From Polynucleobacter sp. MWH-HuK1 (GTDB taxonomy: Bacteria; Pseudomonadota; Gammaproteobacteria; Burkholderiales; Burkholderiaceae): a stretch of 22,373 bases of DNA. Numbering within the stretch: position 1 is the stretch's first letter; every line of letters begins with the position of its first letter. The notes below the pieces were generated by a model. That model saw only the letters and a list, made by a program, of their open reading frames with translations. It was not told the origin of the DNA and searched no databases. A program made the position numbers and the translations under genes. Positions 2,761 through 14,771 of the stretch are shown piece after piece. The stretch spans positions 408,979 to 431,351 of the forward strand of contig NZ_JACVPP010000001.1 in the NCBI RefSeq assembly GCF_018881815.1. The letters run 5' to 3'.

Positions 2761-2833
2761 AGGCATCCTCTGCCCTGGTCGATTCCGCCCCGGGCCACCA
2801 AGAAACACTAAAACCACCTTCGGGTGGTTTTTT
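2761..2833 (+). repeat. tRNA-3'-half-like + terminator module, copy F1
   Basis: It begins aggcatcct. Bases 2779-2800 (tcgattccgccccgggccacca) are identical to 13229-13250. Then come the spacer agaaacacta, the hairpin aaaccacc-ttcg-ggtggttt (2811-2830) and a T-run (2828-2833). It starts 7 nt after the stop at 2752-2754. Confidence 0.8.
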
Positions 2834-2859
2834 CATTTGGGCTCGGTTACATTGTTGCT

Positions 2860-4050
2860 ATGAAAGCGCTCAAGAAAAGAATCCTGGGGTCTTGTTGTGG
2901 TGCCCATATTCTTCATGATGGATATACCGACCTACTGTATGTCATGTTTCCCATTTGGCAAATGGCATTTGGTCTATCGCTTGCTGAAGTTGGCTCTTTA
3001 AAGACTTTATATTCGGGGGCAATGGCTTCGCTACAAGTCCCAGCAAGTATGTTGTCAGAAAAGGTCGGTGAAAAACGCCTATTGCTATTCGGCACTCTGA
3101 TTGCGGCAATTGGATTTTTATTATCTGGTTGGACTACCGGTTTTTTGGGTTTAGCAGCCTGTTTAGTTCTTAGCGGTATTGGCGCCAGTGTTCAGCATCC
3201 CCTTTCCTCCTCATTAACTTCCCATGCTTTTCAAGGTTCGGAATTAAGGGGCGCTTTGAGCACATATAACTTTTCTGGCGATATAGGGAAGGTGTTGTTG
3301 CCATCACTCTGTGCGGCTTTATTGGCAGTCTGGGATTGGCATACCGTAACCAGCGTGATGGGGCTCTTGGGATTGTTGGCTGTAATGTTCTTAGCAGTTG
3401 TTCTACCTAAAACAACAGTTACCAATCACTCTAAGACCCAGTTAAATAAGGCATCAAGTGATACAAGCGGAAAAGGTGCAGGCAGCAACTTTCTTAATCT
3501 AGGCTTTATTTCTTTATCGTCAATTGCTGCTATCGATAGCGCTACTCGTATGGGGTTTCTAACACTACTACCTTTTTTATTAATGTCTAAAGGCGCCACA
3601 GTCACGCAGGTAGGCTTTGCGCTGAGTTTAACTTTTGCTGGTGGCGCCGCAGGTAAATTTGTTTGCGGGTTTATCGCAGCTCGTTTTGGCGTAATCAAAA
3701 CCACTTTAATAACAGAGATTGCTACGTCTATTCTGATGGCTTTAACCTTGCCGCTAAATGTTGATGTTGTTATGTTGATGCTGCCATTAGTTGGTGTTGC
3801 CTTAAATGGAACATCCTCTGGGCTTTATGGAACTGTCCCCGAGTTAGTTCCACCGCACATGCGATCAAGAGCATTTGGAGTGTTTTATACAGTAACAATT
3901 GGTGCTGGTGCTATTTCACCTCTTGTTTATGGTTTTGCCGGGGATAGGCTTGGAGTTCCGAATACTATTGCCCTAATTGCTTGCTCAGTATTAATGGTGC
4001 TACCGCTGACTTTGGTTTTAAAAAAAGCTTTTAGAAGATTACAAGTCTAG
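2860..4050 (+). CDS. MFS transporter
   Basis: The product is hydrophobic with about 12 TM segments. I prefer ATG 2860 (MKALKKR...) because the track's GTG at 2824 lies inside the F1 terminator hairpin. Confidence 0.8.
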   Translation: MKALKKRILGSCCGAHILHDGYTDLLYVMFPIWQMAFGLSLAEVGSLKTLYSGAMASLQVPASMLSEKVGEKRLLLFGTLIAAIGFLLSGWTTGFLGLAACLVLSGIGASVQHPLSSSLTSHAFQGSELRGALSTYNFSGDIGKVLLPSLCAALLAVWDWHTVTSVMGLLGLLAVMFLAVVLPKTTVTNHSKTQLNKASSDTSGKGAGSNFLNLGFISLSSIAAIDSATRMGFLTLLPFLLMSKGATVTQVGFALSLTFAGGAAGKFVCGFIAARFGVIKTTLITEIATSILMALTLPLNVDVVMLMLPLVGVALNGTSSGLYGTVPELVPPHMRSRAFGVFYTVTIGAGAISPLVYGFAGDRLGVPNTIALIACSVLMVLPLTLVLKKAFRRLQV

Positions 4051-4054
4051 AGCT

Positions 4055-4132
4055 AGGATTGGATATCTTTAGGCTTGGTCGATTCCGCCTCAGGCCACCA
4101 AGAAATACTAAAACCACCTCCGGGTGGTTTTT
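4055..4132 (+). repeat. tRNA-3'-half-like + terminator module, copy F2
   Basis: Sequence is aggattggatatctttaggcttggtcgattccgcctcaggccacca + agaaatacta + the hairpin aaaccacc-tccg-ggtggttt (4111-4130) + a T-run. It starts 5 nt after the stop at 4048-4050. Confidence 0.8.
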
Positions 4133-4169
4133 GTTTGGAGAATTGCGTATGGGGCGCCTGATTAAGAAG

Positions 4170-4186
4170 TGTCCTTTAAAAGGACA
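4170..4186. repeat. Palindrome tgtccttt-a-aaaggaca (variant of the island palindrome)
   Basis: It has perfect 8-bp arms. It differs from GTCGTTT-N-AAACGAC by one symmetric change per arm (G to C and C to G). Confidence 0.6.
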
Positions 4187-4214
4187 TGTCAATTACGCAT
4201 CCCTGCGTCAGTCG

Positions 4215-4233
4215 ATGTCGTTTTAAACGACAT
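4215..4233. repeat. Island palindrome copy A (atgtcgttttaaacgacat)
   Basis: Perfect 9-bp arms surround a central t. The 19-mer is identical to 5372-5390. Confidence 0.85.
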
Positions 4234-4238
4234 TACAC

Positions 4239-4262
4239 ATATATACGCATATGCGTATATAT
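4239..4262. repeat. 24-nt perfect palindrome atatatacgcat|atgcgtatatat
   Basis: I read it directly and it is exactly self-complementary over 24 nt. It sits at the left end of the island, next to the 3' end of the ORF at 4270-4734. Confidence 0.85.
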
Positions 4263-4269
4263 AGAAATC

Positions 4270-4734
4270 TTACTTTCTTTGATTAAGTTTTCCCGAGCTC
4301 CATATGTCAAATTGCCGTTGAGCTTCAGCAGTGATGCCATCAATAGAGTCTTGGGGTAATTGCTTAAGGCATTCAGCTAACGCTTCGGGGCTGGGTTTTT
4401 CAGCAGGCTTGGTCTTCTTAATTTCTTGCGGCGATTTGCCATCCCAAGCAAATGGATTGCCAAACGCTGGTGTATCGGGCAGGCAATCATCTCTATAGAC
4501 TGGCGCATCATTTGTAGCAAATGGCGTAAATGAAATCGTTCTTTCAAAGATGAGTGATTTGCCTGTTGGTGTAGGTGGCAGAGCTGGCATAGACTTCATT
4601 GCCTTTCTAGCTAATTGCTCCGCTTTATCGGAAGTTTTCCAAAGCGTTTCTACTTTAGTAACAGTTCCATTTGGAGCAATTTCAATGCTGAATCTCACAT
4701 GTCCTTGGTCTGGAGACCCTGCTCCAAAAATCAA
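4270..4734 (-). CDS. Hypothetical protein with a TonB-C-terminal-like segment; possibly a gene remnant
   Basis: GHVRFSIEIAPNGTVTKVETLWKTSDKAEQLARKAMKSM resembles the TonB C-terminal fold signature. The track start is TTG (rc of 4732-4734), with an in-frame stop 5 codons upstream. There is no TM or Pro-rich N-terminal part and no Shine-Dalgarno. Confidence 0.45.
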   Translation of the reverse strand: MIFGAGSPDQGHVRFSIEIAPNGTVTKVETLWKTSDKAEQLARKAMKSMPALPPTPTGKSLIFERTISFTPFATNDAPVYRDDCLPDTPAFGNPFAWDGKSPQEIKKTKPAEKPSPEALAECLKQLPQDSIDGITAEAQRQFDIWSSGKLNQRK

Positions 4735-4765
4735 GAAAATTAATGACTATGGGCAAACATTAGTT

Positions 4766-5137
4766 GTGGATGATGAAAAAAACATTCATGCCAAATATTT
4801 CTTTAGTCCTGATAAAAGACAAAATAAAGGCTTATTAATTCCTGTTGCCGCGCAAGTGGAGAACTTAACAATAGCTAAGTGGGAAAGAATTTCTATTCAG
4901 GGCAAGCTTGAGAGAAAGTTTAATCAAAAGGGATGGTTCAAGTGTCTTCAGGACTCACAAGGTTTTTATACGGAAATTGTTTTTGGTGAGCCGATAAAAT
5001 ACGAAATATGGATTAAATTAGTTGAAGATGGAGATGTATTTTTCGGTAGCGGGATGTACGAGGGAAATGCTAGACCATATTCTCAGTGGCGAGCTTCAAA
5101 CACGTTTTGGAATAAATTAATTACTAGCCGATACTAG
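4766..5137 (+). CDS. Hypothetical protein, start uncertain (GTG 4766 proposed)
   Basis: The 195-codon open frame 4550-5137 is antisense to 4270-4734 for its first 185 nt. Only the non-overlapping part looks protein-like (KYFFSPDKRQNKGLLIPV...WFKCLQDSQGFYTEIVFGEPIKYEIWIKLVEDGD). There is no in-frame ATG after 4735 until late in the frame. Confidence 0.35.
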   Translation: MDDEKNIHAKYFFSPDKRQNKGLLIPVAAQVENLTIAKWERISIQGKLERKFNQKGWFKCLQDSQGFYTEIVFGEPIKYEIWIKLVEDGDVFFGSGMYEGNARPYSQWRASNTFWNKLITSRY

Positions 5138-5164
5138 GTTGCCCATACATTTTATTGAAAATAA

Positions 5165-5199
5165 ACTTGCTGTATGAGCTCAAAACTTTTACAGCAAGT
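5165..5199 (+). promoter_or_regulatory. 10-bp-stem hairpin or operator immediately upstream of the integrase start
   Basis: acttgctgta (5165-5174) pairs perfectly with tacagcaagt (5190-5199) across a 15-nt loop. It ends 2 nt before ATG 5202 and covers where a Shine-Dalgarno would be. No T-run follows it. Confidence 0.5.
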
Positions 5200-5201
5200 C
5201 G

Positions 5202-6476
5202 ATGTCTAAAGACGTAGTCACTAAACTTACAAATCTAGAAGTTCTCCCCTCACCTCAGCATAAATCTCAATCCACAGTCTTAGGCCAACTTAAATACGCA
5301 GAGCCTACAGAGCTTTATTTACGTGACGGTGACGTAGTACTCTTTCGCAGACCAAATAGCCCTCTCTGGCAATGTCGTTTTAAACGACATGACAACACAT
5401 GGGACAGAGTCTCAACCAAGCAAGCATCAATTGAACATGCCGTCAGAGTTGCCTGTGATTTATATGATGAAGCCAGATTTCGCCAGCGGTTGGGGCTTGC
5501 GCAAAAAGCACCTACATTCGCAGAAATAGCGCACGCCACACTTTATGAAATGCGACGTGATTTGGATGAAGGCATTGGTAAGGTGGTTTACCTAAGCTAT
5601 ATCACTTGTATTGAGAAATACTTTTTGCCTTATTTCATGGATAAGCGACTAGAGGAAATAACCTATACAGACGTTCATGAGTTTGAGATTTGGCGTAATA
5701 GACAAATGCGACTAGTGCCTAAATCCAGCACCTTAATGAACTTTGCCAGTGCTTGGGCGAAGCTACAGCAGACAGCAGTTAATAAAGGCTGGATAAGTGA
5801 GCGAGTGGCAATACCTAAATTAACTACTCGTGGGCATAAAGGTAAAACTCGTCCTGCCTTTAGCCGCGAAGAGATTACCAAGTTATTTGAATATATGGAG
5901 AGGTGGGCCAAGGAAGGCCGCCTAGAGGTAGAGCGGGAGATAAGGCCTTTAGTACGTGACTATGTAGAGATGCTTTTGCTAACTGGCATGCGACATGGTA
6001 CTGAAGCACTCAATATTTGCTGGAACAATATTGAATGGCATACCAATGATGGCAAGAAATATCTGCGTATATGGGTGGATGGCAAAACTGGCGGTCGCTG
6101 GCTAATAGCTAAACATAGGGCTGTTGATGTTCTCAAGAGATTACATAGCCGCCAAAAAGCTGTGTATGACATTCCGTTTGATAGATTGTTTGAATCTCGT
6201 GCGCCGCAAAGGATATTTGTGATGGCAGATGGGCATCAACCTTTGCGTATTGATGGCACATTTAAGAAGCTTATGCGAGATAGTGGATTAGCCAGAAGTC
6301 AGGATGGGCAAATGCGTACCTTGTACTCATTGCGACATACTTACGCAACATTAGAGCTACTAGAGAATAAGACGGATATTCACACGCTGGCTAAGCAAAT
6401 GGGAAATAGTGCCGCCATGATTGAGAGGCACTATTCAAAACTGACTCCCACTATGGCGGCTGAGCAATTGGCGTAA
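5202..6476 (+). CDS. int: Tyrosine-type site-specific integrase (phage integrase family), 424 aa
   Basis: Catalytic signature: LLLLTGMRHGTEAL (box I Arg), YSLRHTYATLEL (HxxR) and MGNSAAMIERHYSK (Tyr). A long N-terminal arm/core-binding region is present. Confidence 0.9.
   Translation: MSKDVVTKLTNLEVLPSPQHKSQSTVLGQLKYAEPTELYLRDGDVVLFRRPNSPLWQCRFKRHDNTWDRVSTKQASIEHAVRVACDLYDEARFRQRLGLAQKAPTFAEIAHATLYEMRRDLDEGIGKVVYLSYITCIEKYFLPYFMDKRLEEITYTDVHEFEIWRNRQMRLVPKSSTLMNFASAWAKLQQTAVNKGWISERVAIPKLTTRGHKGKTRPAFSREEITKLFEYMERWAKEGRLEVEREIRPLVRDYVEMLLLTGMRHGTEALNICWNNIEWHTNDGKKYLRIWVDGKTGGRWLIAKHRAVDVLKRLHSRQKAVYDIPFDRLFESRAPQRIFVMADGHQPLRIDGTFKKLMRDSGLARSQDGQMRTLYSLRHTYATLELLENKTDIHTLAKQMGNSAAMIERHYSKLTPTMAAEQLA
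5372..5390. repeat. Island palindrome copy B, inside the integrase CDS
   Basis: atgtcgttttaaacgacat is identical to copy A. It encodes (Q)CRFKRH at int codons 57-63. Confidence 0.85.
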
Positions 6477-6478
6477 AA

Positions 6479-6500
6479 AAGCCCACTAAAAAGTGGGCTT
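6479..6500. terminator. Bidirectional intrinsic terminator between convergent genes
   Basis: aagcccac-taaaaa-gtgggctt is flanked by an A-run on the left and T/A-rich sequence on the right. It lies between the int stop (6476) and the stop of 6509-6916. Confidence 0.75.
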
Positions 6501-6508
6501 AAAGAGAG

Positions 6509-6916
6509 TTAATTGAGTTGCTGAATTTCTATGCCCTCAATAAAAGTTGGGCGTTTCTTTGGCATTTCATATTTAGAATTCAATCCTTCGGAGGGATTAA
6601 ATGAATCAGGGTGAATTAGTGCGACCCTGCTATTATTTAAATATGCTGATAAGGTCGCAAGAATCACGCAATCATCACAAAAATTCTTCCACCTTTGATT
6701 GCTAGATACGGCTAGGTGAGGATTAGAGTCAAAAAACTTGTCTTCCAAAGGCAGTGAATATTCAAGTCTTTTAAGCAAGCCCTTCAAAAATGATTCATCT
6801 TTTTGGGTGCGGTATTTATTCATATGCCATTCAAGATTAGATTGACTTGCCATAACAATTGTTGATAAACCAAATGGTGCCATGTAGACGCCATGGTGAA
6901 TATCTCGACTTTTCAT
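6509..6916 (-). CDS. Hypothetical protein (135 aa), translationally coupled to the AAA+ gene
   Basis: Its start overlaps the AAA+ stop in an ATGA (6913-6916). An AAGGAG Shine-Dalgarno sits at 6924-6929 (rc). I recognise no family. Confidence 0.7.
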   Translation of the reverse strand: MKSRDIHHGVYMAPFGLSTIVMASQSNLEWHMNKYRTQKDESFLKGLLKRLEYSLPLEDKFFDSNPHLAVSSNQRWKNFCDDCVILATLSAYLNNSRVALIHPDSFNPSEGLNSKYEMPKKRPTFIEGIEIQQLN

Positions 6917-7575
6917 ATCGCTACTCCTTTCCGCCTAGCTAACCGCTTGAGGCCATGATTAAGATTTCTAAATGACCCATTTGCCAATGAAATAGCCTCT
7001 AATAAAACTTCGTCGTTTAAAAAGACATTTTTATTTTGGGCGATTTCTTTTGCTAATGGCAAATACTCCTCAGGAGCGCCCGCATTCATTTCAATCAAAA
7101 CACATCTATCTTTAAGGCCTTTATCAAGCTCAGATATGTTGTTGGTTGTCAGAATAAAAACTGCCCTATGAGTATTCATGGCTGATTTCAAACTCTGCTG
7201 AGCTAACTTGGTTAGGTTATCGACTTCATCAAGGATGATGTAGTGAAGCCCGCTAGAGTTAAAGGACATGACGTTTAAGATATTGCCTATAAGTGTCATT
7301 ACCTGCGGCCCATTGAATCCCTGCTGACAGCCGATAAAGGTTTCCGGGCTATTTAAGCCAACTCCAGCTTTACCTTTTTCGATTGCGTCAGGTAGCAAGT
7401 TCGCGAGAGTGGTTTTTCCTGTCCCATAGACTCCGTAAAGAAGTAATCCTGATTTGCCGCTTGAAGGGATCTCTTCGATATTTGTGACAATATCTTCGAT
7501 TCGTAATCGACTTTCAGGATTGCTGTAGTAGATGTCAAAAACATTTTGAGGCGCATTTTGGTTCTCCTTGTTCAT
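6913..7575 (-). CDS. AAA+ ATPase with clamp-loader (RFC/DnaX/HolB)-like motifs, 220 aa
   Basis: Walker A is LLYGVYGTGKTT, Walker B is YIILDEVDNL, sensor-1 is FILTTNN, and an SRC-like DRC motif occurs in KGLKDRCVLIEM. A strong AAGGAG Shine-Dalgarno (rc of 7564-7569) precedes the start. Confidence 0.8.
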   Translation of the reverse strand: MNKENQNAPQNVFDIYYSNPESRLRIEDIVTNIEEIPSSGKSGLLLYGVYGTGKTTLANLLPDAIEKGKAGVGLNSPETFIGCQQGFNGPQVMTLIGNILNVMSFNSSGLHYIILDEVDNLTKLAQQSLKSAMNTHRAVFILTTNNISELDKGLKDRCVLIEMNAGAPEEYLPLAKEIAQNKNVFLNDEVLLEAISLANGSFRNLNHGLKRLARRKGVAI

Positions 7576-7599
7576 TTGTAATTCCTTTCAGTGTTTAAT

Positions 7600-7623
7600 G
7601 GTGGTGGCAGTTAAGCCACCACC
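7600..7623. terminator. 9-bp GC-rich hairpin between 7631-8419 and the AAA+ gene (possible attenuator)
   Basis: The hairpin is ggtggtggc-agttaa-gccaccacc. On the minus strand it is not followed by a clean T-run, so its termination efficiency is uncertain. Confidence 0.4.
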
Positions 7624-7630
7624 TGTTTGG

Positions 7631-8419
7631 TTAGGCCGCTTTGGCAAGTTTTGCTTCAGCATCGTTAGCCGCATCTACAACTCGTTTTGCTTCGGCTGTA
7701 ACCTCTTGTTGCTTTGAGTACATTGCCGCAAATGCCGCCTTTACGACGCTGGCATTACGAATCACGACTTTGATATCAAATCCACCCTGACTGTTTTGCT
7801 CTGCTAGCAATACACAGGTATCACCCATGAAATCAGCATCAGCTGTCAGCGAAAGCATTTCGGAGCTGGCAGTACCAAGGGCTTTCATGTTGTCAAAGTG
7901 CTCCTTTGCCATTTCTGCCTTATCAGCCATGCTTACAAAGGTTTCGCTTTGTCCCAGCTTGATTTCTTGAACGCCACCCTCTTTTTCAATCCAATCCGCT
8001 AGCTCTAAGTAAGGCACATTTAATTTTTGTGCTTTACGTAAAACGATGGAATAGGTGCTTAGGCGTCGTCTATCAACATCTCCAAATACAGCACGAATTA
8101 CGCGGGTAATTAATGGCTTGGTTTTGTTGTACTTATAGTTGCGTGATTTATAAAACTTCTCAAGCGAAGCCAAACGAGCTTTAGCGTCTCCAATTGATAG
8201 CTCTCCGCAAAACTGTAAGCATTGGGCTAGCACTTGATATAGAGCTTGATTACTTGTTCTATATGCGCCTTCTTCCCATGTAATACGACTTTCTTCCATA
8301 GCGTATAAGAGCTTGGTAGAAGTTGAGGCAATCGTAGCCTTACGAGCCTTCTTTTGTTTGTCGTTTAAAACGACTTTATTTGTTGCTGTTGTTTCTACTG
8401 CGTTAGTTAATGTATTCAT
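7631..8419 (-). CDS. Hypothetical protein (262 aa), predicted mostly helical
   Basis: A good AGGAGA Shine-Dalgarno (rc of 8427-8432) precedes the start. The N-terminus is basic (KQKKARKAT) and the C-terminus is Ala/Lys-rich. I recognise no family. Confidence 0.7.
   Translation of the reverse strand: MNTLTNAVETTATNKVVLNDKQKKARKATIASTSTKLLYAMEESRITWEEGAYRTSNQALYQVLAQCLQFCGELSIGDAKARLASLEKFYKSRNYKYNKTKPLITRVIRAVFGDVDRRRLSTYSIVLRKAQKLNVPYLELADWIEKEGGVQEIKLGQSETFVSMADKAEMAKEHFDNMKALGTASSEMLSLTADADFMGDTCVLLAEQNSQGGFDIKVVIRNASVVKAAFAAMYSKQQEVTAEAKRVVDAANDAEAKLAKAA
8360..8374. repeat. Island palindrome copy C, inside CDS 7631-8419
   Basis: gtcgtttaaaacgac encodes VVLND at codons 16-20 of the minus-strand gene. 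Confidence 0.8.
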
Positions 8420-8464
8420 TTTTACTTCTCCTGTGTGTATATAAAGGTATGGTTGCTTGTTAAG

Positions 8465-8520
8465 AAATTTAACCGCTTGGCCATGACTCTATTAGGCCTT
8501 TTTTTGATAAACTTAACCGC
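8465..8520. promoter_or_regulatory. Direct 12-mer repeat in the divergent promoter region
   Basis: aaatttaaccgc (8465-8476) and aaacttaaccgc (8509-8520) match at 11 of 12 positions and are offset by 44 bp. They lie between the divergent starts at 8419 and 8557. Confidence 0.4.
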
Positions 8521-8556
8521 ATACAAACTAATTAAAGTAATTTGGATGTTAAGAAA

Positions 8557-9312: not shown

Positions 9313-9875
9313 ACCAATTCAACCGCCGCTTTAAGTTGAGTTGGACTTGAATATAGATAGCTAGCAGTAGTGCTGATGTTTCTATGCCCTGCCAAGCTTT
9401 TTAATATATGGATTGCTGTACCTTTATTGGCAAGGCCAGTTAGAAAGCTACGTCTTCCGCTATGACTACTCGCACCATCTAAGCCTACGTTGCGATATAG
9501 GTAAAAGAAGTACTGGGCTAGGGAGTTAGCTGAGAAACCTGCTTGTTTCTGCGTGTAGAACAAAGGCTTGCCGGCATCCCTAATGCGAAGTAGACGCAAA
9601 TACTGGCCAATCTCTTTGCGCATACGTTCATTAAGGTAAACAGTACGGGCATGTTTACCCTTGGTTTGTTCGGGCAATAAACGTACTTCATCCTTAATCG
9701 TGTTATCGCTGTTTAAAACGTCGTTTATGCGTAGGGCGGCAACTTCACCTACCCGCATACCCGCGTAATGCGTAAGTAGCAACATAGCGCGATTACGTGC
9801 GCTGTGCCTACGTGTAGCAACATGGTCTAAAACTCTACGTAGCTCTTGTGGGTTTAAAACTCTAGCTTGTGACAT
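9309..9875 (-). CDS. Small tyrosine recombinase, catalytic domain only (188 aa; FimB/FimE-sized)
   Basis: The protein has HSARNRAMLLLTHYAGMRVGEVAALRINDV (box I Arg), HSGRRSF (HxxR) and LAGHRNISTTASYLY (His/Tyr). There is no N-terminal core-binding domain. A GGGAGA Shine-Dalgarno precedes the start. Confidence 0.85.
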   Translation of the reverse strand: MSQARVLNPQELRRVLDHVATRRHSARNRAMLLLTHYAGMRVGEVAALRINDVLNSDNTIKDEVRLLPEQTKGKHARTVYLNERMRKEIGQYLRLLRIRDAGKPLFYTQKQAGFSANSLAQYFFYLYRNVGLDGASSHSGRRSFLTGLANKGTAIHILKSLAGHRNISTTASYLYSSPTQLKAAVELV

Positions 9876-10835
9876 ACGTTCTCCCTGAAATGTAATAAAT
9901 ACAGAGCTACAGTATGTTTTCTTATGTTTGGTTAGAGCAACCGAAAATGGCTAAGTAAGAACCTTCCAAAATTCAAAGACTTAGCTGATTTCATAATCTT
10001 TTACATATTAGATTATGTTTTCGTGGCATTTTCGCCACGAACTTTCATGAAGTATTTATAAGCCCTACAAGCTGTTTGATTTCGGGTTCTGCTACCCAAG
10101 TAAGCGAAAGCTTCTAATCATCGCTTAAACGAAGGATTTACCCTGAATGGGTCTACAGCTATTAAATTTCTGGGCTACGAAAAATTAATAGGTAGCTGAA
10201 GCTTTTCGGGTGGTGATTTTCTACCTATACCCCCTTAGTAGTAAGCGAGCTAACACTCGCTTGTGATTTCGCTTGTCGCTCATCACATTTCTTTCTTCTT
10301 AAATTGTTTGTATTGGCTTTCTCTAGATTCAACCTACACTGAGCCTTAAGCAACAGGCTCAGTTATAGAGAAGAAATAAGGAAAAGGACTTTCTCTGAGT
10401 TCTTTACTACACCACTTAGGGCACAACCCAATTGGGTAAGGGCGGTTTTGCTGTCTCCTTTTATGTGCGGCCGTAAAACGCAACAATGACATCAGCATTA
10501 AGTGGCTACCAATGTCTTGTTCGCAAGTTGCTGTGTAAGCAGGGCTTGCTCGTGATTCATTTAATCTTTGTGCTGAAACATTCTTGTATCAATTAGTAAG
10601 CAACTCTAATGGCGTCCTGTAAAGGATAGTGATACTAAGTCTCTGCTACTGCCCAGAATTTCCATCACTGCGACTCTAAGTCCAGCTTTAGGGTGACATA
10701 ACGACTGGGTGTCACTGCCCTTGTTTCAGTAGTAATTTATAAAGTTATTTAGCAAAACCTAATAAAAGAAGAGTAGAAATGAATGTGATTATTAGGTATA
10801 TGTGGCTTTTGGCATAAAGAGGTTGCTCTTTCGAA
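9876..10835. other. 960-bp ORF-free region rich in local hairpins (candidate invertible switch, large ncRNA, ori or decayed DNA)
   Basis: The track shows no ORF of 60 aa or more in any frame. Hairpins occur at 9992-10017, 10021-10040, 10243-10262 and 10338-10363. The hexamer gtaagc occurs 4 times (10100, 10241, 10535, 10596). A 9-bp inverted repeat, agagcaacc (9934-9942) and ggttgctct (10821-10829), brackets the region. Confidence 0.5.
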
Positions 10836-10883
10836 ATGGCCGACAATAAATTAACTGTGCCCATTCACACAAAGGAGAAAACG

Positions 10884-11321
10884 ATGAGCACACTTAATAG
10901 TTTGAAATTAGTAAATTCTAAAAAACCAACCGCAATTCCACCCATCCTTCATCGCCGTAATAAGCTAGGTTCTAAGGTATGGGAGCAAATTCAGCTAGCC
11001 AAAGCGCAAAAGGAAGGCGGTACTTTTACTGTTAAGAAATTCAAAACAGTGAAAGACTACGACGGCTCGCGTAAGAATATTGAAATTGAAAAGCGTATAC
11101 GCCAGTGGTGGTACGTGGCGGCTGACGGCAAGGTTTGCTTAAACATTCGCTATGGGGCAAAAATTATTGAATTTGCCAAAGGTAAAACTGCCGTAGAGGT
11201 GGGCTCAGGCGAAGAGCTTATTAAGGCACTTGAGATTATTAAAGGCGCTGTAGAAGCTGGCGAACTCGATACCCAAATTGAACAGGCTAGTGGGGCTGTT
11301 CGAGCTGGGTTTGGCCGTTAA
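10884..11321 (+). CDS. Hypothetical island protein (145 aa), DUF6641-like by recollection
   Basis: An AGGAGA Shine-Dalgarno at 10873-10878 favours ATG 10884 (MSTLNSLK...) over the track's 10836. The pattern RRNKL...EQIQLAKAQ...KRIRQWW...IRYGAKIIEFAKGK..VEV...ELDTQIE resembles a family seen in proteobacterial islands. That resemblance is unverified. Confidence 0.7.
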   Translation: MSTLNSLKLVNSKKPTAIPPILHRRNKLGSKVWEQIQLAKAQKEGGTFTVKKFKTVKDYDGSRKNIEIEKRIRQWWYVAADGKVCLNIRYGAKIIEFAKGKTAVEVGSGEELIKALEIIKGAVEAGELDTQIEQASGAVRAGFGR

Positions 11322-11328
11322 CTTGGAG

Positions 11329-11345
11329 TGTCGTTTAAAACGACA
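11329..11345. repeat. Island palindrome copy F
   Basis: tgtcgttt-a-aaacgaca lies between the stop at 11321 and the real terminator at 11357-11399. Confidence 0.8.
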
Positions 11346-11356
11346 AATGATGAATA

Positions 11357-11399
11357 CAGAGCTAATGCTATTGCTAATGGTATTAGCTCTGCTCTTTTT
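11357..11399 (+). terminator. Intrinsic terminator
   Basis: cagagctaat (11357-11366) pairs with attagctctg (11382-11391), followed by ctcttttt. Confidence 0.7.
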
Positions 11400-11409
11400 G
11401 GAGGATTGA

Positions 11410-11559
11410 ATGAAAACATTTGAAGCTTATGTACGAATACAGCCTCAGGGTTGGGTTGTGAAAACTCAGGTAGTTGCAGATAACAGTCAAGATGCTTATT
11501 TTTTATTACAAGGACAGTATGGCGCTGGCAATATAGTTCACTTGCCGTCTGAGGTTTAA
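11410..11559 (+). CDS. Small hypothetical protein (49 aa), below the ORF-track cutoff
   Basis: A GGAGGA Shine-Dalgarno at 11400-11405 lies 4 nt before ATG 11410. The ORF reads MKTFEAYVRIQPQGWVVKTQVVADNSQDAYFLLQGQYGAGNIVHLPSEV and stops at 11557-11559. Confidence 0.5.
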   Translation: MKTFEAYVRIQPQGWVVKTQVVADNSQDAYFLLQGQYGAGNIVHLPSEV

Positions 11560-11610
11560 GAATTTATTTGTAAATGGGTCTCTCGCTAAATATATTAAAA
11601 GGAGAGACTC

Positions 11611-12018
11611 ATGAAAGTTAAAGAAGTCACAAACCCTGAAGAGCAGTTAGGGTTGCTAAGGGTAATTATTGATAACACTTGGAGTGCCATCCAACAGCAG
11701 GCAGATGCCCATGCTAGGCAGAAAGCATCGCAACCACTTGCGAAACCAAAAGCTAAAGCTCCCAAGCCACCCAAGAAAGCCCCGCATGTCCCAAAACCAC
11801 AGCCTCTAGCAAAGCCCAAGGCTCCTTATCCAGCCATGCCACAGCCAGCAATGAAAAGTACTATCGGTAGAGCAGTCTATAAACAGCCTCAACCCAGTAT
11901 TGGCGCCCCAAAACAAACGGCGACTAGTCCTTCTAATCAGCCGAACGCTTCACTATCCAGTTTAGAGAAAGACGAAATGCTCAGCCTCCCTCGTGGAGCT
12001 TTGCCAAAACCGCTCTAG
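11611..12018 (+). CDS. Hypothetical protein with a Pro/Lys-rich low-complexity centre
   Basis: An AAGGAGA Shine-Dalgarno precedes the start, and KPKAKAPKPPKKAPHVPKPQPLAKPKAPYP forms the centre. The Shine-Dalgarno lies in the 3' arm of a hairpin (gtctctc 11578-11584 pairs with gagagac 11602-11608). Confidence 0.65.
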   Translation: MKVKEVTNPEEQLGLLRVIIDNTWSAIQQQADAHARQKASQPLAKPKAKAPKPPKKAPHVPKPQPLAKPKAPYPAMPQPAMKSTIGRAVYKQPQPSIGAPKQTATSPSNQPNASLSSLEKDEMLSLPRGALPKPL

Positions 12019-12162
12019 TGATTCAAAAGCGCGGTTTACATGGAGATTCATATGCTTTATTGATTGACAGAATAAAGCGCAGACAGGCATAGTGAAAATG
12101 AATAAGGATTAATTACATTTAGTAGAATGATTTTCATTCATTACACATAAATTGGAGCGGGC

Positions 12163-12972
12163 ATGGCAAAGGCACCAGCAAAAAAGACTGCTGTTAAAAA
12201 ACCGACTAAGAAGGTAGTTATTAAAAAGCCTAAGCCGTTAGCTCTAAAAAAGCCTGTTGCTAAAGCGCCTGCCAAGAAGGCTGTCAAAAAATCAACAACA
12301 CCTGATTACTTTAAGTTGCCATTTGAGGTTTATTACAGCGACCATGTGGGCGTTAATCAGATGGAGTTTAAGTCCGACGTAAAGTGCAAGTCATTTAGGG
12401 ATGTGAAGGTGGTACATCAAGAGCAAGGCGGCTCTTGGGGTCTTTCGCTTTATTGCCCCAAAAATAATGGGCCAGAACTTTACTGCTGTTTAACCAATGG
12501 CCATGATGAGGTTCAGCCAGAATGGTTGGATTATCTTGACGAGGAAAATATAGATTTCAACTCTGGAACTAACTATAAGGTTGTCGTAGAGGGGAATGAA
12601 ATTAGATTTGAATATCTAACTGACGATGAAGAAGACGAAGATTCAGAGGAATATCTCGATATCGATAATATGGATTATTGCTGTAGTTATACATTTATGA
12701 CTTATGAGTTGGGAGATAGTTGTCCAGACTACATAATTCTTGATGCTGATGACACAAGAATTAAAGTTAATTTAGATGGTTATTTGCTGGATGAAAACGA
12801 CGACGCTACAGAAGAGCAAATTATCGATGTAGAAAAATTGATTGAGAGTGATGAGTTGTCAGACTACGAAGTTGACGAGCTTTGGGATGCCAAAAATAAA
12901 TGGGTTGAATCCATTCTGAAGAAAGATTTTCCAAAAGATACAAATCTGTCTTTATCTTTCAAGACAAAATAA
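12163..12972 (+). CDS. Bipolar protein: histone-H1-like Lys/Ala-rich N-terminus plus a Cys-containing, strongly acidic C-terminal region
   Basis: The N-terminal ~45 aa are AKAPAKKTAVKKPTKKVVIKKPKPLALKKPVAKAPAKKAVKK. The C-terminal part has DDEEDEDSEEYLDIDNMDY and DENDDATEEQIIDVEKLIESDELSDYEVDELWD. Confidence 0.75.
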   Translation: MAKAPAKKTAVKKPTKKVVIKKPKPLALKKPVAKAPAKKAVKKSTTPDYFKLPFEVYYSDHVGVNQMEFKSDVKCKSFRDVKVVHQEQGGSWGLSLYCPKNNGPELYCCLTNGHDEVQPEWLDYLDEENIDFNSGTNYKVVVEGNEIRFEYLTDDEEDEDSEEYLDIDNMDYCCSYTFMTYELGDSCPDYIILDADDTRIKVNLDGYLLDENDDATEEQIIDVEKLIESDELSDYEVDELWDAKNKWVESILKKDFPKDTNLSLSFKTK

Positions 12973-12990
12973 TGTCGTTCAAAACGACAT
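12972..12990. repeat. Island palindrome copy G, at the right end of the island
   Basis: atgtcgttcaaaacgacat has 8-bp arms and starts on the last base of the stop codon of 12163-12972. Confidence 0.8.
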
Positions 12991-13031
12991 GCCAAGTAGA
13001 AATGGTTGGTGGCAGGCACAGGAGTCAAACT

Positions 13032-13146
13032 AATTTTTGACTGACACATATATGTTTTGAGCTTGCGCACAGTTTTTACACGCTAAGGCAACTTTCTGAT
13101 TACGCTCGAAATTTTGACCGGCACATTAAGTAAATTTTGCGCACGA
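13032..13146 (+). repeat. Imperfect direct repeat units at the right island end
   Basis: aatttttgactgacacat (13032-13049) resembles aaattttgaccggcacat (13109-13126), and ttgcgcac occurs at both 13063-13070 and 13137-13144. The period is about 75-77 bp. Confidence 0.5.
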
Positions 13147-13153
13147 AATGTCT

Positions 13154-13250
13154 GGGGTGGTGTAACCAGTTGAAATCAAAGCGAAAGCGGTCTATCGGAG
13201 GATATTTGAAAATCCTTGTGTCGGTGGTTCGATTCCGCCCCGGGCCACCA
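13154..13250 (+). pseudogene. tRNA-like remnant: well-formed 3' half (13199-13250) without a matching 5' acceptor strand
   Basis: The T-arm is ggtgg-ttcgatt-ccgcc (13223-13239), followed by acceptor 3' strand ccgggcc, discriminator a and CCA ending at 13250. The anticodon-like stem aggat/atcct (13199-13216) closes an 8-nt loop, atttgaaa. The best upstream partner, ggggtgg (13154-13160), gives two G-G mismatches. Confidence 0.55.
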
Positions 13251-13260
13251 AACTCAAATA

Positions 13261-13291
13261 ATGCCCTGCCTTATGCGGGGCATTTTCTTTT
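13261..13291 (+). terminator. Intrinsic terminator after the tRNA-like remnant
   Basis: atgccctgc-cttat-gcggggcat forms a 9-bp stem including one G-U pair, followed by tttcttttg. Confidence 0.65.
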
Positions 13292-13361
13292 GGGCTGGCG
13301 GATGAGCATGCTTCTTTAAAATTAAATATTGAGTCAAAAGCTTATTAATAAAGGTGAAGAT

Positions 13362-13571
13362 ATGCGTAAAGAATATGATTTCTCAAAGGCTCGTAAAAAT
13401 CCATATGCTTCTATGCTCAACAAGCCTATAACGATTAGATTGGATGAGGATTCAGTGAGCTACTTCAAGTCTGTATCAGAAGAGGTGGGCATTCCTTATC
13501 AAAGCCTCATTAATCTATATTTAAGAGATTGCGCCGCTTCGCATAAGAAGTTGAACCTTAGCTGGAAGTAG
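13362..13571 (+). CDS. brnA: BrnA-type (CopG/RHH-like) antitoxin, 69 aa, no cognate toxin gene adjacent
   Basis: MRKEYDFSKARKNPYASMLNKPITIRLDEDSVSYFKSVSEEVGIPYQSLINLYLRDCA matches the BrnA pattern as I remember it. ATG 13362 with an AGGTGA Shine-Dalgarno is preferred over the track's TTG 13329. Confidence 0.75.
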   Translation: MRKEYDFSKARKNPYASMLNKPITIRLDEDSVSYFKSVSEEVGIPYQSLINLYLRDCAASHKKLNLSWK

Positions 13572-13580
13572 TCTGGAGGC

Positions 13581-13656
13581 AGGATTGGCTCCTTACCCTT
13601 GGTCGATTTTGCCCTGGGCCATCAAGAAATAAAAAACCACCCGAAGGTGGTTTTTT
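13581..13656 (+). repeat. tRNA-3'-half-like + terminator module, copy F4
   Basis: Sequence is aggattggctccttacccttggtcgattttgccctgggccatca + agaaataaaa + the hairpin aaccacc-cgaa-ggtggtt + tttttt. It starts 10 nt after the stop at 13569-13571. Confidence 0.75.
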
Positions 13657-13690
13657 ATTTGGTTTATGGGTAATTCATTAAGATTGGCTT

Positions 13691-14050
13691 ATGCCTAACT
13701 TATCTAATTTCTTTGGCCCATTTTCTTTTGTTGGCCTTTTAGTTCTTTCAAATGTTTTTATGACATTTGCCTGGTACGCGCATCTTAAAAATCTATCATC
13801 CAAACCTTGGTGGATTGCTGTACTCGCTAGCTGGGCAATTGCTTTACTCGAGTATGTCTTTCAGGTGCCCGCTAATCGGATTGGATTTCAATATTTTTCC
13901 TTGGGACAACTCAAGATTGCTCAGGAGGTGATTACGCTGAGCGTCTTCGTACCATTTGCTGTTTTCTATATGGGCGAACCATTTAAGACCGATTACATAT
14001 GGGCTGGCCTATGTTTGTTGGGTGCGGTCTACTTTATGTTTAGAGGCTAA
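13691..14050 (+). CDS. DMT-superfamily small membrane protein (DUF486 type)
   Basis: The product is 119 aa with 4 TM segments. The FMTFAWYAHLK and EY..QVPANRIG motifs are typical of DUF486. Confidence 0.8.
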   Translation: MPNLSNFFGPFSFVGLLVLSNVFMTFAWYAHLKNLSSKPWWIAVLASWAIALLEYVFQVPANRIGFQYFSLGQLKIAQEVITLSVFVPFAVFYMGEPFKTDYIWAGLCLLGAVYFMFRG

Positions 14051-14126
14051 GGATCAAGCATCCTGGGGCTTGGTCGATTCCGCGCTGATCCACCAAGCAA
14101 TACCAAAGCCACCTTCTGGTGGTTTT
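14050..14126 (+). repeat. tRNA-3'-half-like + terminator module, copy F5
   Basis: It starts on the last base of the stop codon. Sequence is aggat-caagc-atcct (both halves of the anticodon-like stem kept) + ggggcttggtcgattccgcgctgatccacca + agcaatacca + the hairpin aagccacc-ttct-ggtggttt. Confidence 0.75.
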
Positions 14127-14143
14127 ATGTATAGAATTTCTCC

Positions 14144-14698
14144 ATGACAAATCTAAACCAGCTTCCTACAGATTTACCCATCCCTCAAGACGATGGTTCG
14201 ACCAATCATTTGAAGGGTATGAAATTACCCAATGTTTCTTTAAATGCTACCAATGGTAAGACGATTAATATTGGCGACATCAAAGGCAGGCTAGTTATCT
14301 ACTGCTATCCAATGACGGGGCAACCTAACGTAGCATTACCGGATGGCTGGGATCAAATACCTGGAGCAAGAGGTTGCACGCCTCAGAGCTGTTCGTTTAG
14401 AGATCACTATCAAGAACTTCAAGCATTGGGCGCTGAGGTTGTTGGCTTGAGTGTGCAAACTACAGAGTATCAAAAAGAGATGGCAGATAGACTGCACCTC
14501 CCATTCCCGGTTATTAGTGATGTGAATTATGAATTTCAGAAAGCATTGAATATGCCAACCTTTGTAGCTGCAGGCATGACCCTATTAAAGCGCGTCACAC
14601 TTATCGCTAATAATGGCGTCATTGAGGCGGTTCATTACCCGATTTTCCCAAGCGATAGTGATCCAGCGTGGGTAATTGACTATTTGAAGAGTCATTAG
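14144..14698 (+). CDS. Peroxiredoxin (AhpC/TSA, Bcp/PrxQ-like)
   Basis: The thioredoxin-fold pattern LVIYCYP...PGARGCTPQSCSFRD contains the peroxidatic Cys motif. Confidence 0.8.
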   Translation: MTNLNQLPTDLPIPQDDGSTNHLKGMKLPNVSLNATNGKTINIGDIKGRLVIYCYPMTGQPNVALPDGWDQIPGARGCTPQSCSFRDHYQELQALGAEVVGLSVQTTEYQKEMADRLHLPFPVISDVNYEFQKALNMPTFVAAGMTLLKRVTLIANNGVIEAVHYPIFPSDSDPAWVIDYLKSH

Positions 14699-14771
14699 GA
14701 CCGGATCATTGGCCTTGATTGTTTTATCTTGTGCCACGATGAAGCTCTACAACCACATTAGGGTGGTTTTT
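14697..14771 (+). repeat. Degenerate copy F6 of the tRNA-3'-half-like + terminator module
   Basis: It overlaps stop codon 14696-14698. Sequence is aggaccggatcattggccttgattgtttt...gtgccacgatgaagctctac + the hairpin aaccac-atta-gggtggtt + ttt. Similarity to F1-F5 is only partial. Confidence 0.45.

Follow-up and report, generated by a model that had tools for sequence, protein, structure and literature searches.

The window (the whole 22,373-nucleotide stretch of DNA analysed) carries an array of short modules directly behind the stop codons of its genes, and we consider it likely that these modules are the hybrid att scars of serial site-specific insertion, the array being an additive, cassette-type island downstream of tRNA-Phe(GAA). 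Observed in the window and in related loci are the array structure, the shuffling of its units, indels bounded by modules, the split inheritance of module halves, and an island lying in a module with an empty site elsewhere. Such a system would amount to an integron-like collecting of accessory genes in freshwater Polynucleobacter, via a tRNA-derived site instead of an integron site.

Modules and cassettes of the window

On its + strand the window holds four good modules, each about 85 nt long, together with a fifth that is degenerate and a true copy of a tRNA 3′ half. The repeat finder returned a 78-nt family in four copies (2754-2831, 4054-4131, 13578-13655 and 14049-14126; 63-79% identity to the reference copy), a five-copy family made of the 3′ 43 nt of the module, which takes in 14733-14775, and an exact 23-mer repeat (2779-2801 and 13229-13251). 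A degenerate 30-nt module pattern matched four times, against 0.00 expected from 100 shuffles. Run on the window, a profile of 78 modules from other genomes gave E = 9e-33, 3e-27, 3e-20, 2e-23 and 1e-11 for the five modules in order and 3e-8 for the copy at 13204-13294, with no further credible match in the whole window. Repeat finder, shuffle test and profile thus agree that the family first noticed from the sequence alone is real, and its proposed position, 0-10 nt after stop codons, is borne out by gaps from stop codon to module start of 2, 6, 9, 1 and -2 nt. The features are as follows.

1-2754 (+): left multi-gene segment of the island (Pfam; locus comparison)
Before 416 (-): partial regulator, left segment (Pfam)
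416-841 (+): 141-aa ORF, left segment
842-1297 (+): rhodanese (Pfam)
1301-1915 (+): methyltransferase (Pfam)
1952: palindrome, left segment
2002-2754 (+): DUF4395 (Pfam)
2743-2843 (+): module 1 (nhmmer E = 1e-28 and 9e-33; repeat family D1)
About 2757-2778 (+): module 1, pseudo-tRNA arm
2779-2800 (+): module 1, core TCGATTCCGCCCCGGGCCACCA
2801-2840 (+): module 1, spacer, type-A hairpin and T-run (terminator-like hairpin 2810-2831)
2860-4050 (+): MFS transporter cassette gene (Pfam MFS_1, E = 2e-37)
4041-4139 (+): module 2, attL of the 9-kb island (repeat finder, nhmmer, empty-site comparison); its right part is the island's left arm with a type-A hairpin
4079-4100 (+): module 2, core in a TCAGG variant, from the MFS cassette with its pseudo-tRNA arm
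4140-13198 (+): integrative island (Pfam, PHROGs, NCBIfam)
4550-5137: LlaMI-like REase fragment, island
5202-6476: 424-aa tyrosine integrase, island
6913-7575 (-): clamp-loader-like AAA ATPase, island
7631-8419 (-) and 8542-9312: uncharacterised island ORFs
9309-9875 (-): 188-aa Xer/invertase-like recombinase, island
10585-10720 (-): Polynucleobacter-1 RNA, island
10836-11321: DUF6641, island
11611-12018 and 12163-12972: island ORFs
13199-13250 (+): attR of the island, made of the island's arm and then 45 nt that match tRNA-Phe exactly
13251-13310 (+): type-C left arm (terminator scan; hairpin terminator 13260-13284, T-run, GGCGGATGAG)
13363-13571 (+): brnA antitoxin cassette gene (Pfam BrnA_antitoxin; ORF listed from TTG 13329)
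13570-13666 (+): module 3 (nhmmer E = 3e-25; repeat family D1)
13691-14050 (+): DUF486/DMT_6 membrane protein cassette gene (Pfam E = 3e-45)
14036-14138 (+): module 4 (nhmmer E = 6e-28; the stop TAA 14048-14050 overlaps its start)
14144-14698 (+): peroxiredoxin (Redoxin/AhpC-TSA) cassette gene (Pfam)
14691-14781 (+): module 5, degenerate (nhmmer E = 1e-11)

The left segment is probably part of the array rather than of the core genome. Its 141-aa/rhodanese/methyltransferase block recurs in locus L044 downstream of tRNA-Phe and two modules, in L008 the methyltransferase has a module behind it, and in L029 DUF4395 forms a unit with modules at its borders. Since the window has no intact tRNA-Phe, we infer its place in a tRNA-Phe-headed array from L044 and the other loci. 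The MFS reading frame as listed begins at GTG 2824, inside the hairpin; its likely start is ATG 2860. The brnA gene, whose partner brnT is missing here, is 78-88% identical to its counterparts in 10 loci, which lie in cassettes bounded by modules, most of them brnT-brnA; a cassette homologous to DUF486/DMT_6 has a module on each side in L007, and peroxiredoxin homologues lie within the arrays of L010 and L033. Module 5 marks the right border of the array, and in the conserved right flank (HAD hydrolase, 14842-15525) homology to L010, L027, L032 and L038 starts at 14797-14799.

The 9-kb island encodes two recombinases, and no primase/helicase replication module was detected in it with Pfam, PHROGs and NCBIfam. 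Its backbone is also present in L039-L045 and in L047, where it is integrated at a genuine tRNA-Phe. In the attR, the 45 nt at 13206-13250 match the genuine Polynucleobacter tRNA-Phe without a difference, anticodon loop through CCA; the same 45 nt occur at six independent island right ends, with variable sequence on both sides. The copy at 13199-13250, previously described as the best-preserved tRNA-like copy, is thus indeed a tRNA 3′ half but a different object, the island's attR. The island is placed exactly in the MFS module, of which P. sphagniphilus (L028) has the uninterrupted, empty site; L028 and L031 carry the same arm as the window after MFS and different sequence beyond CCACCA. A homologue of the type-C arm directly follows the MFS module in L028 and precedes brnT-brnA in L103 and L105; on this comparison, 13251-13310 is the sequence that lay 3′ of the MFS module before the island inserted.

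Parent tRNA and arrays in related genomes

On sequence comparison with related genomes, the modules descend from the tRNA-Phe(GAA) gene of Polynucleobacter and the terminator that belongs to it, the parent that the earlier note proposed to locate. The tRNA-Phe genes are near-identical in 10 genomes (one differs by a single base, outside the duplicated core), and AGAAACACCAAAACCACCTTCGGGTGGTTTTTT, which equals the module spacer and hairpin, lies directly 3′ of the gene in five of the 10. Derivation from this gene is certain for the 22-26 nt core and for the spacer and hairpin, the last two being the sequence natively found 3′ of tRNA-Phe in about half of the genomes. Upstream of the T loop the case for tRNA ancestry is only modest: the mean z against shuffles is 1.6, although in about half of 74 modules the best local alignment falls at or near tRNA nt 28-42, the anticodon arm. 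The tRNA 5′ half is never duplicated in the arrays, and the modules have derived features in common, namely a 1-nt deletion in the T loop and the GGCCCTGG segment.

A module-specific pattern was found in 37 stretches, all from Polynucleobacter or freshwater betaproteobacterial MAGs, and no isolate contig was listed more than once among the matches. Copies are not dispersed in related genomes: each has a single array locus, in which the modules (about 143 in the 37 stretches, and 6 in the window) are always co-oriented. Wherever the upstream flank is present, an intact tRNA-Phe heads the array, behind a histidine kinase and response regulator pair. Module spacing has a median of 708 bp across 111 intervals, which hold one gene in 63 cases, two in 24 and three in 9 (genes in the comparison loci being called crudely, as longest ORFs). 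In 86 of 101 cases the nearest gene 5′ of a module has the module's orientation, and for most such genes the stop codon lies -6 to +13 nt from where the module starts. Recurring cassette families are ordered differently from genome to genome; among them are brnT-brnA, phd/yefM-yoeB, gp49-HTH (three toxin-antitoxin pairs among the shuffled cassettes), DUF3106, tautomerase, UDG, BLUF, MAPEG, patatin, MFS and Prx. An integrase homologue is present in only 3 of the 38 sequences (window and 37 stretches), with a fragment in one more.

Within the module, positions 39-64 are invariant; the family of the upstream gene co-varies with positions 4-38, and that of the downstream gene with positions 65-100. 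The linkage of hairpin to downstream gene is partial (0.85-0.87 against a background of 0.77-0.78). Left module parts move together with the gene before them and hairpins with the gene after them, and the changeover maps to GGCCACCAA. The TCAGG variant is common to the window and L090, whose downstream sequences differ, which places the exchange point 3′ of module position 53.

The window copy of the MFS cassette is 96.7% identical over 1343 nt to that of P. sphagniphilus L028, and the block common to both ends at module position 61. In metagenomes this cassette stands in at least 15 different settings on its upstream side and at least 14 on its downstream side, and it directly follows an intact tRNA-Phe in L092, L095, L122 and L130. 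Beyond its CCACCA(A), sequence switches among at least five hairpin types, of which two could be tied to one downstream cassette each (type B to c12-c25, type C to brnT-brnA). There is polymorphism at population level, for which the earlier note had proposed to look: L100 and L101, 99.6% identical, differ by a 5.27-kb multi-cassette block that ends in modules; L100 and L105 share 99.6% identity as far as the module that follows MFS, after which they are unrelated; and L092 and L091 (99.6% identical) differ upstream of MFS by an island-type attR arm that stands in place of the tRNA-Phe 5′ part.

Proposed serial insertion and its alternatives

We propose that the insertable unit is a cassette of one to three genes, or the 9-kb integrase island, each with an attP-like site in three parts: a left arm, formed by a terminator hairpin that imitates the sequence natively found 3′ of tRNA-Phe; a core of some 26 bp, identical to tRNA-Phe from T loop to CCA with AGAA added; and a right arm, a decayed tRNA copy from D-stem/anticodon arm to T stem that abuts the stop codon of the unit's last gene. 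A tyrosine integrase would recombine this site with the tRNA-Phe 3′ end or with any resident module. With an exchange point in or beside GGCCACCAA, the tRNA itself would never be damaged, and each insertion would create a hybrid module made of the left unit's pseudo-tRNA arm, the core and the right unit's terminator arm. Repeated insertion, with excision or exchange between any two modules, could then build and shuffle co-oriented, mostly single-gene arrays, and homologous exchange between near-identical module parts may contribute. Cassettes without an integrase would presumably travel as circles and be moved in trans by integrases such as that at 5202-6476; the terminator arm may have been kept for preserving tRNA-Phe termination and 3′ processing.

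The earlier note had objected that serial integration duplicates only an att core and cannot explain the conserved spacer and terminator. This objection is mistaken: each element brings its own left arm with a terminator hairpin, and that arm comes to lie 3′ of the pseudo-tRNA arm that the element before it has left. Of the possibilities raised at that stage, cassettes with a tRNA-derived recombination site agree best with the single tRNA-Phe-headed locus, the shuffling, the module-ended blocks and the island with its empty site.

A rather unlikely alternative is that the modules are portable homology, cassettes being exchanged after DNA uptake by RecA-dependent recombination over about 25-64 nt, with site-specific integration reserved for large islands. 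Over some 64 nt, core, spacer and hairpin show more than 90% conservation, and both the scarcity of integrase homologues and the partial linkage of hairpin to downstream gene fit this idea. So do mosaic differences: MFS cassettes that are 99.6-99.8% identical differ at 3-5 positions in the upstream type-A spacer and hairpin 5′ strand, which would not be expected from one fixed crossover at CCACCA and which suggests additional homologous exchange or gene conversion. However, unrelated hairpin types switch within a few nucleotides of CCACCA(A), where only about 22-26 nt of identity lie on one side, and the integrase island is inserted exactly at that switch point in a module; moreover, portable homology leaves the origin of the arrays and of the pseudo-tRNA arms unexplained.

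Could the modules instead be tRNA-like 3′-UTR elements, with an acceptor-like hairpin and ACCA tail that is cut by RNase P/Z ahead of the terminator, or stabilised, and conserved for this role in the RNA, recombination scars being incidental? We regard this as very improbable. GGCCC(T)GG, which the modules have and real tRNA lacks at that place, repeats the acceptor 3′ strand in inverted form; it is 83-93% paired across 74 modules (many one-sided changes giving G-U pairs), and the predicted fold has three hairpins (z = -2.5). The scan for promoters and terminators found no promoter-like sites between cassettes, which is compatible with polycistronic transcripts needing processing. Against this, covariation is weak (87.7% of cells paired, 86.3% in shuffles, few double changes), ARAGORN and Rfam called no tRNA in the window and detected no tRNA-like fold, and modules occur at the tRNA-Phe locus only, not after genes elsewhere. 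Their halves are also inherited separately, and a module is thus not a unit selected together with its gene. RNA processing, the t-element reading, is not needed to explain the data; it may be a side function of the modules.

We give equally little credence to the view that the array is what remains of successive large islands or prophages, its single genes being chance survivors of deletion with no mobility as cassettes. Large integrase islands do use the tRNA-Phe site and leave partial tRNA copies, and such a model has been published for tycheposon islands (bioRxiv 10.1101/2020.12.28.424599). Yet an identical module-bounded MFS unit stands in all its many upstream contexts, including one adjoining tRNA-Phe, integrase sequence is as rare as noted above, and the T-loop deletion and GGCCCTGG common to the modules would not result from functional tRNA ends decaying independently. 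Lastly, a REP/MITE-like mobile terminator family self-inserting after genes, raised in the earlier note and suggested by a short repeated element with a hairpin and bidirectional terminator-like stem directly after stops, is rejected as having almost no chance of being correct, because copies are confined to one locus per genome, always in the orientation of the heading tRNA-Phe where the flank is available, and their left and right halves co-vary with different neighbours, the same gene keeping its left arm while the hairpin type changes.

Comparison with known systems

Chromosomal integrons consist of IntI, attI, attC and cassettes, and Vibrio-type superintegrons carry toxin-antitoxin cassettes. 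As in the arrays described here, integron cassettes are co-oriented, mostly single-gene and without a predicted promoter, a structured recombination site of about 60-130 nt follows the stop codon directly, toxin-antitoxin cassettes are interspersed, and cassette order varies by strain. Nevertheless, identity with an integron (as defined in PMC3698932), to which the earlier note had likened the array, is rejected: there is no intI platform beside the array and no attC, the site derives from tRNA-Phe and its terminator, and the proximal site is a functional tRNA gene. The terminator in each module also makes expression from a single Pc-like promoter unlikely.

The ICESt1/CIME work in Streptococcus thermophilus reportedly describes CIME-type elements and tandem accretion with integrase-less derivatives. 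Tycheposons are tyrosine-recombinase elements at tRNA 3′ ends (Hackl et al., bioRxiv 10.1101/2020.12.28.424599). In both, as here, new arrivals push older elements outward, only partial tRNA copies separate elements, and remnants pile up in islands. In contrast, our units are much smaller and almost always without an integrase, and the pseudo-tRNA arms form a conserved lineage of their own. Membership of the tycheposon family is not established, since the island has no detected primase or helicase replication module.

In the literature searched, the scope of which did not take in the main island paper (PMC5244307), we found no description of such an array in Polynucleobacter. The additive flexible genomic islands at tRNA genes (e.g. 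fGI-2) share with our array the same tRNA-adjoining locus in all strains, a variable number of cassettes, direct repeats of the tRNA 3′ end between units, and streamlined planktonic hosts. They differ in having a 20-bp repeat where our array has a structured module, about 85 nt long and composed of pseudo-tRNA arm, 26-bp core and terminator arm; here the units are mostly single genes at integron-like density (median 708 bp), with the exchange point and the split inheritance of module halves mapped.

Repeat modules and the parent tRNA-Phe gene

The repeat modules that the earlier note had picked out in the window are real; there are four good copies and one degenerate one, all on the + strand and each placed at the stop codon of a + strand ORF.

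Modules in the window (the four well-preserved copies are 63-79% identical to the reference copy of 78 nt)
2754-2831, + strand, well-preserved module
4054-4131, + strand, well-preserved module
13578-13655, + strand, well-preserved module
14049-14126, + strand, well-preserved module
3′ end at about 14775, + strand, fifth, degenerate module of the repeat family

A degenerate module pattern has 4 matches in the window (0.00 expected), an identical 23-mer occurs at 2779-2801 and 13229-13251, and a profile rescan of the window found no extra degenerate modules left of 2743 or right of 14781. All copies in the window start between -2 and +9 nt relative to the upstream stop codon, and the genes that they flank encode a DUF4395 protein, an MFS transporter, BrnA, a DUF486/DMT_6 protein and a peroxiredoxin. 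The window comes from a Polynucleobacter; the MFS cassette (a cassette being the unit, mostly of one gene, between two modules) is 96.7% identical to its P. sphagniphilus counterpart, and the HAD gene of the right flank is 87% identical to a P. yangtzensis gene. The MFS ORF as listed begins with GTG at 2824, within the module hairpin; to judge from the conserved sequence of the cassette and from an ATG at 2860, position 2860 is the likely true start. The brnA gene of the window (13363-13571), which lies only ~70 nt from the left arm, encodes an orphan antitoxin; in most other loci with that cassette, brnT precedes brnA.

A module-specific pattern scan, covering one genome per species of bacteria and archaea, returned 37 stretches, all from Polynucleobacter or from generically named freshwater betaproteobacterial MAGs. 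Twelve of these carry a tRNA gene; in ten it is tRNA-Phe(GAA), sharing the strand of the modules. Its sequence is near-identical in all ten (GGCCTGGTAGCTCAGTCGGTAGAGCAGAGGATTGAAAATCCTTGTGTCGGTGGTTCGATTCCGCCCCGGGCCACCA), with one locus (L024) deviating by a single base. Directly 3′ of tRNA-Phe, in five of these ten genomes, is AGAAACACCAAAACCACCTTCGGGTGGTTTTTTCATTTG, the exact equal of the module spacer and hairpin. Thus the parent tRNA, which the earlier note had supposed to exist, is located, and its native 3′ flank shows a module to be a tRNA-Phe copy that runs from about the 3′ strand of the D-stem to CCA, joined to the terminator of that gene. The proposed tRNA derivation stands for the core to CCA and for the spacer and hairpin, which equal the native 3′ flank of tRNA-Phe in about half of the genomes; it is weak 5′ of the T loop (mean z = 1.6), although about half of the 74 modules aligned still match the anticodon arm in register.

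The copy at 13199-13250, taken in the earlier note for the best-preserved member of the family, is tRNA-like but different from the modules, its last 45 nt being real tRNA-Phe from the anticodon loop onwards. Modules have in common a 1-nt T-loop deletion, absent from real tRNA-Phe, and a GGCCC(T)GG motif that replaces the variable loop and T-stem 5′ strand of the real tRNA; these common features mark the modules as a separate lineage and not displaced functional tRNA ends. GGCCC(T)GG is an inverted repeat of the acceptor 3′ strand CCGGGCC (columns 24-35 and 48-54 of the module alignment), and the two can pair in 83-93% of the 74 modules, with few compensatory changes.

Cassette arrays and the point of exchange

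A profile made from the window modules found ~143 modules in the 37 stretches, besides 6 in the window. Modules within any one locus are all co-oriented, an intact tRNA-Phe heads the array wherever the upstream flank is available, and isolate contigs were each listed at most once in the pattern scan; no duplicated tRNA 5′ half was found among the modules examined. The median module-to-module spacing is 708 bp and, of 111 intervals, 63 hold one gene, 24 two and 9 three. In 86 of 101 cases a module and the gene preceding it share an orientation, and most of the preceding genes stop between -6 and +13 nt from the module start, the TAA or TAG often being supplied by the module itself. Arrays differ in size, the smallest having one or two modules (L009) and the largest at least eight in 8 kb (L037); the right border in several genomes is the HAD-hydrolase gene that follows module 5 in the window, and homology to this flank begins at 14797-14799 in four genomes. 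ARAGORN also calls odd tRNA-Ser genes beside modules in L013 (5320-5409, anticodon ACT) and in L106, which are probably pseudo-tRNAs made by module junctions.

ORF clustering showed that the same units recur in varied order with varied neighbours, among them brnT-brnA, phd/yefM-yoeB, gp49-HTH, DUF3106, tautomerase and UDG (with channel) cassettes; BLUF, MAPEG, patatin, MFS and Prx cassettes recur likewise. A metagenome scan with the MFS protein gave ~40 loci, in most of which the MFS unit is module-bounded; its neighbours are of at least 15 kinds upstream and at least 14 downstream. An intact tRNA-Phe lies directly upstream of the unit in L092, L095, L122 and L130, and island-type arms in L091, L106 and L121. 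Gain and loss of units between strains at module edges, set by the earlier note as a check on the cassette idea, is seen in near-identical pairs of loci. L100 and L101 (99.6% identity) differ by a 5.27-kb multi-cassette block with both ends in modules; the 99.6% identity of L100 and L105 extends over 3.9 kb, to the module after the MFS gene, beyond which the two are unrelated; and L092 and L091 (99.6% identity) have, upstream of the MFS gene, the 5′ part of tRNA-Phe and an island-type attR arm, respectively. A scan of viral contigs with the 22-mer core returned 44 stretches, one of them a family island (L047) and most of them true tRNA-Phe genes, which often lay at the end of a contig or close to it, with no module arrays and no support for phage carriage of cassettes.

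The two halves of a module are inherited with different neighbours. Over all module pairs, similarity in positions 4-38 (the pseudo-tRNA arm) is higher where both modules follow genes of one family, and similarity in positions 65-100 (spacer, hairpin and T-run) is higher where the genes after them belong to one family; positions 39-64 hardly vary, and BLAST blocks likewise end at position 61. The MFS unit keeps its own right arm constant and is followed, after CCACCA(A), by at least five unrelated, intact hairpin types. Two types are tied to the downstream unit: a kinase cassette follows type B, and brnT-brnA follows type C. The window and L090, which differ in their downstream sequences, have in common the two-base variant TCAGG of the acceptor-like part; this puts the exchange 3′ of TCAGG, in or next to GGCCACCAA. 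Such exchange, being 3′ of the T arm, would leave tRNA-Phe intact. In addition, the type-A spacer and hairpin have mosaic differences among nearly identical MFS units, suggesting that modules also undergo homologous exchange or gene conversion with one another.

Two other crossover points were considered and rejected. A crossover in the anticodon loop would bring in the module T arm, whose 1-nt deletion would inactivate tRNA-Phe, and TCAGG puts cassette exchange further 3′. A crossover in the hairpin loop fails as a general rule, because one left arm precedes five unrelated, intact hairpin types.

The 9-kb integrase island

The island at 4140-13198 encodes a 424-aa tyrosine integrase, a clamp-loader-like ATPase, a short Xer/invertase-like recombinase, a DUF6641 protein and unknown ORFs.

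Tyrosine recombinases of the island (matches to PF00589, phrog_1 and phrog_216)
5202-6476, tyrosine recombinase
9309-9875, - strand, second recombinase, 188 aa, catalytic domain alone, Xer/invertase-like, kept in all island copies

Core direct repeats flank the island at 4079-4101 and 13229-13251. Its backbone is found in many freshwater contigs, in L047 beside a genuine tRNA-Phe, and identical 45 nt of tRNA-Phe stand at six island right ends. The P. sphagniphilus locus (L028) is an empty site, in which the type-C arm AACTCAAAGAATGCCCTGC...GGCGGATGAG comes straight after the MFS module; the window has the island inserted exactly between the MFS module core and the type-C arm. A module can thus be the target of an integrase element, and we regard this as the most direct evidence that modules are att sites. 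The pair L092/L091 gives a second empty-site comparison, the 5′ part of tRNA-Phe being replaced in L091 by an island-type right arm. No intact tRNA is regenerated at the island end in the window, where the left end is a module; one is present for the family member in L047.

Homologues of the integrase occur in only 3 of 38 sequences (the window and the 37 stretches), either within the array or, in the case of L025, 5′ of the tRNA. The integrases upstream of tRNA-Phe in L025 (395-1648) and L075 (12734-13984) are 45-47% identical to that of the window; they lie ~250 nt from the intact tRNA-Phe and are divergently transcribed, on the wrong side for normal 3′-end insertion, and may be part of an element that has a full copy of tRNA-Phe as its arm.

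The island carries a Polynucleobacter-1 RNA (RF01718, 97 bits; 10585-10720, - strand), which is also present in two further island copies (L018 2703-2838 and L039 9552-9692); this recurrence suggests that the orphan RNA may be a mobile-element component. The palindrome GTCGTTTNAAACGAC has 9 copies in the window (0.06 expected), 7 of them in the island, and 29 of the 33 copies counted over all loci are found outside long ORFs or at ORF ends; a role as terminator, as operator or as target of the short recombinase is conceivable. The slot beside the island integrase holds varying restriction-modification cargo among island copies.

Palindrome copies and restriction-modification cargo
1952, 4171, 4217, 5374, 7012, 8360, 9295, 11330 and 12974 (window), copies of GTCGTTTNAAACGAC
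4550-5137 (window), LlaMI-like endonuclease fragment
8244-9494 (L044) and in L045, HsdS
1-7724 (L039), full type I system and Mrr

Proposed mechanism and relation to known systems

We conclude from these comparisons that the modules are best read as hybrid att sites, which would arise as units insert one after another, site-specifically, at the tRNA-Phe 3′ end or into modules already present. Every inserted unit would contribute a left arm resembling a terminator and a right arm of pseudo-tRNA; the constant terminator character of the left arm would best be explained by selection, keeping tRNA-Phe termination and 3′ processing intact after insertion. We infer, solely from the mapped junctions, that units may leave and enter the array by site-specific recombination, in cis or in trans, and cassettes without an integrase could be moved in trans by the island integrases.

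Integrons carry intI beside an array with attI and the promoter Pc, and their attC sites are imperfect palindromes (R''-L''...L'-R') with a GTTRRRY core. Like them, the array here has co-oriented, mostly single-gene cassettes without a predicted + strand promoter; no sigma-70-like sites were found on the + strand at the cassette borders of the window. Upstream of tRNA-Phe in L012, L014, L024 and L026 there is no integrase; a kinase/response-regulator pair, ntrY/ntrX-like by eye, is found there. Inspection of the 74-module consensus, which is tRNA-Phe 3′ sequence plus terminator, found no GTTRRRY/RYYYAAC pair. Of the integron-like cassettes with a tRNA-derived site suggested by the earlier note, the att-site cassette array is borne out by the island within a module and the empty site of L028; the array is not an integron proper, despite working like one, because it has neither an intI platform nor attC. 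A fuller functional analogy, which we offer tentatively as possible rather than probable, would give tRNA-Phe the role of attI and the ~85-nt modules that of attC; circles of one to three genes, integrase-less cassettes, would circulate across Polynucleobacter species, to be captured and reshuffled in trans by dedicated tyrosine recombinases on the co-resident 9-kb element, with the GGCCC(T)GG/CCGGGCC palindrome as recognition structure.

Among the closest descriptions to the Polynucleobacter array are additive flexible genomic islands at tRNA genes, such as those of Ca. Methylopumilus (20-bp repeats of tRNA-Lys) and the Phe-tRNA hot spot of Alteromonas. Here too the locus is constant in related genomes, and the number and order of att-bounded units vary. 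We rate as new, against known islands, the density of single-gene units, the three-part ~85-nt module and the mapped exchange point. Tycheposons are marked by a tyrosine recombinase with a replication module (primase, helicase or similar). The window island has an integrase, a clamp-loader-like AAA ATPase and unknown ORFs, with no match to a primase or helicase. Tycheposon islands, whose elements are set apart by partial tRNAs (bioRxiv 10.1101/2020.12.28.424599), are the other of the closest descriptions. Other Polynucleobacter papers mention additive islands without this array, and no description of it was found in the literature searched, which left out the Polynucleobacter island paper (AEM 2017, PMC5244307).

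The module might also act as RNA, as a tRNA-like 3′-UTR processing element (t-element); an acceptor-like hairpin with an ACCA tail is predicted (fold z = -2.5), which keeps such a role conceivable, but neither ARAGORN nor Rfam calls a tRNA in the window. The module hairpin resembles a bidirectional terminator in a terminator scan, and covariation of the module pairing over the 74 modules is weak and fits an RNA fold, a DNA fold or plain sequence conservation alike. REP/MITE elements are scattered over the genome in either orientation and are mobile as entire copies, and this reading of the earlier note falls on the single locus per genome, the one orientation and the separate inheritance of module halves.

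Returning to the att-site array, Polynucleobacter are among the most abundant freshwater bacteria and have a small, streamlined genome; such cells raise the question of how accessory genes are traded, and the locus shows exchange at single-gene grain at one chromosomal address. With its defined ~26-bp core site and conserved module, it extends the cassette-array idea beyond integrons, to sites derived from a tRNA gene plus terminator. Primers placed in the module could recover the whole cassette pool of lakes, as in attC-based PCR for integrons; the host is culturable, so excision, capture and the acting recombinase are directly testable, and the tRNA-Phe array locus is a natural landing pad for genetic tools.

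The only Rfam matches in the window are the Polynucleobacter-1 RNA and a glycine riboswitch aptamer (17121-17224, + strand, 59 bits). A 72% direct repeat at 17060-17088, ~96 nt upstream of the aptamer, suggests from its sequence a tandem aptamer pair.
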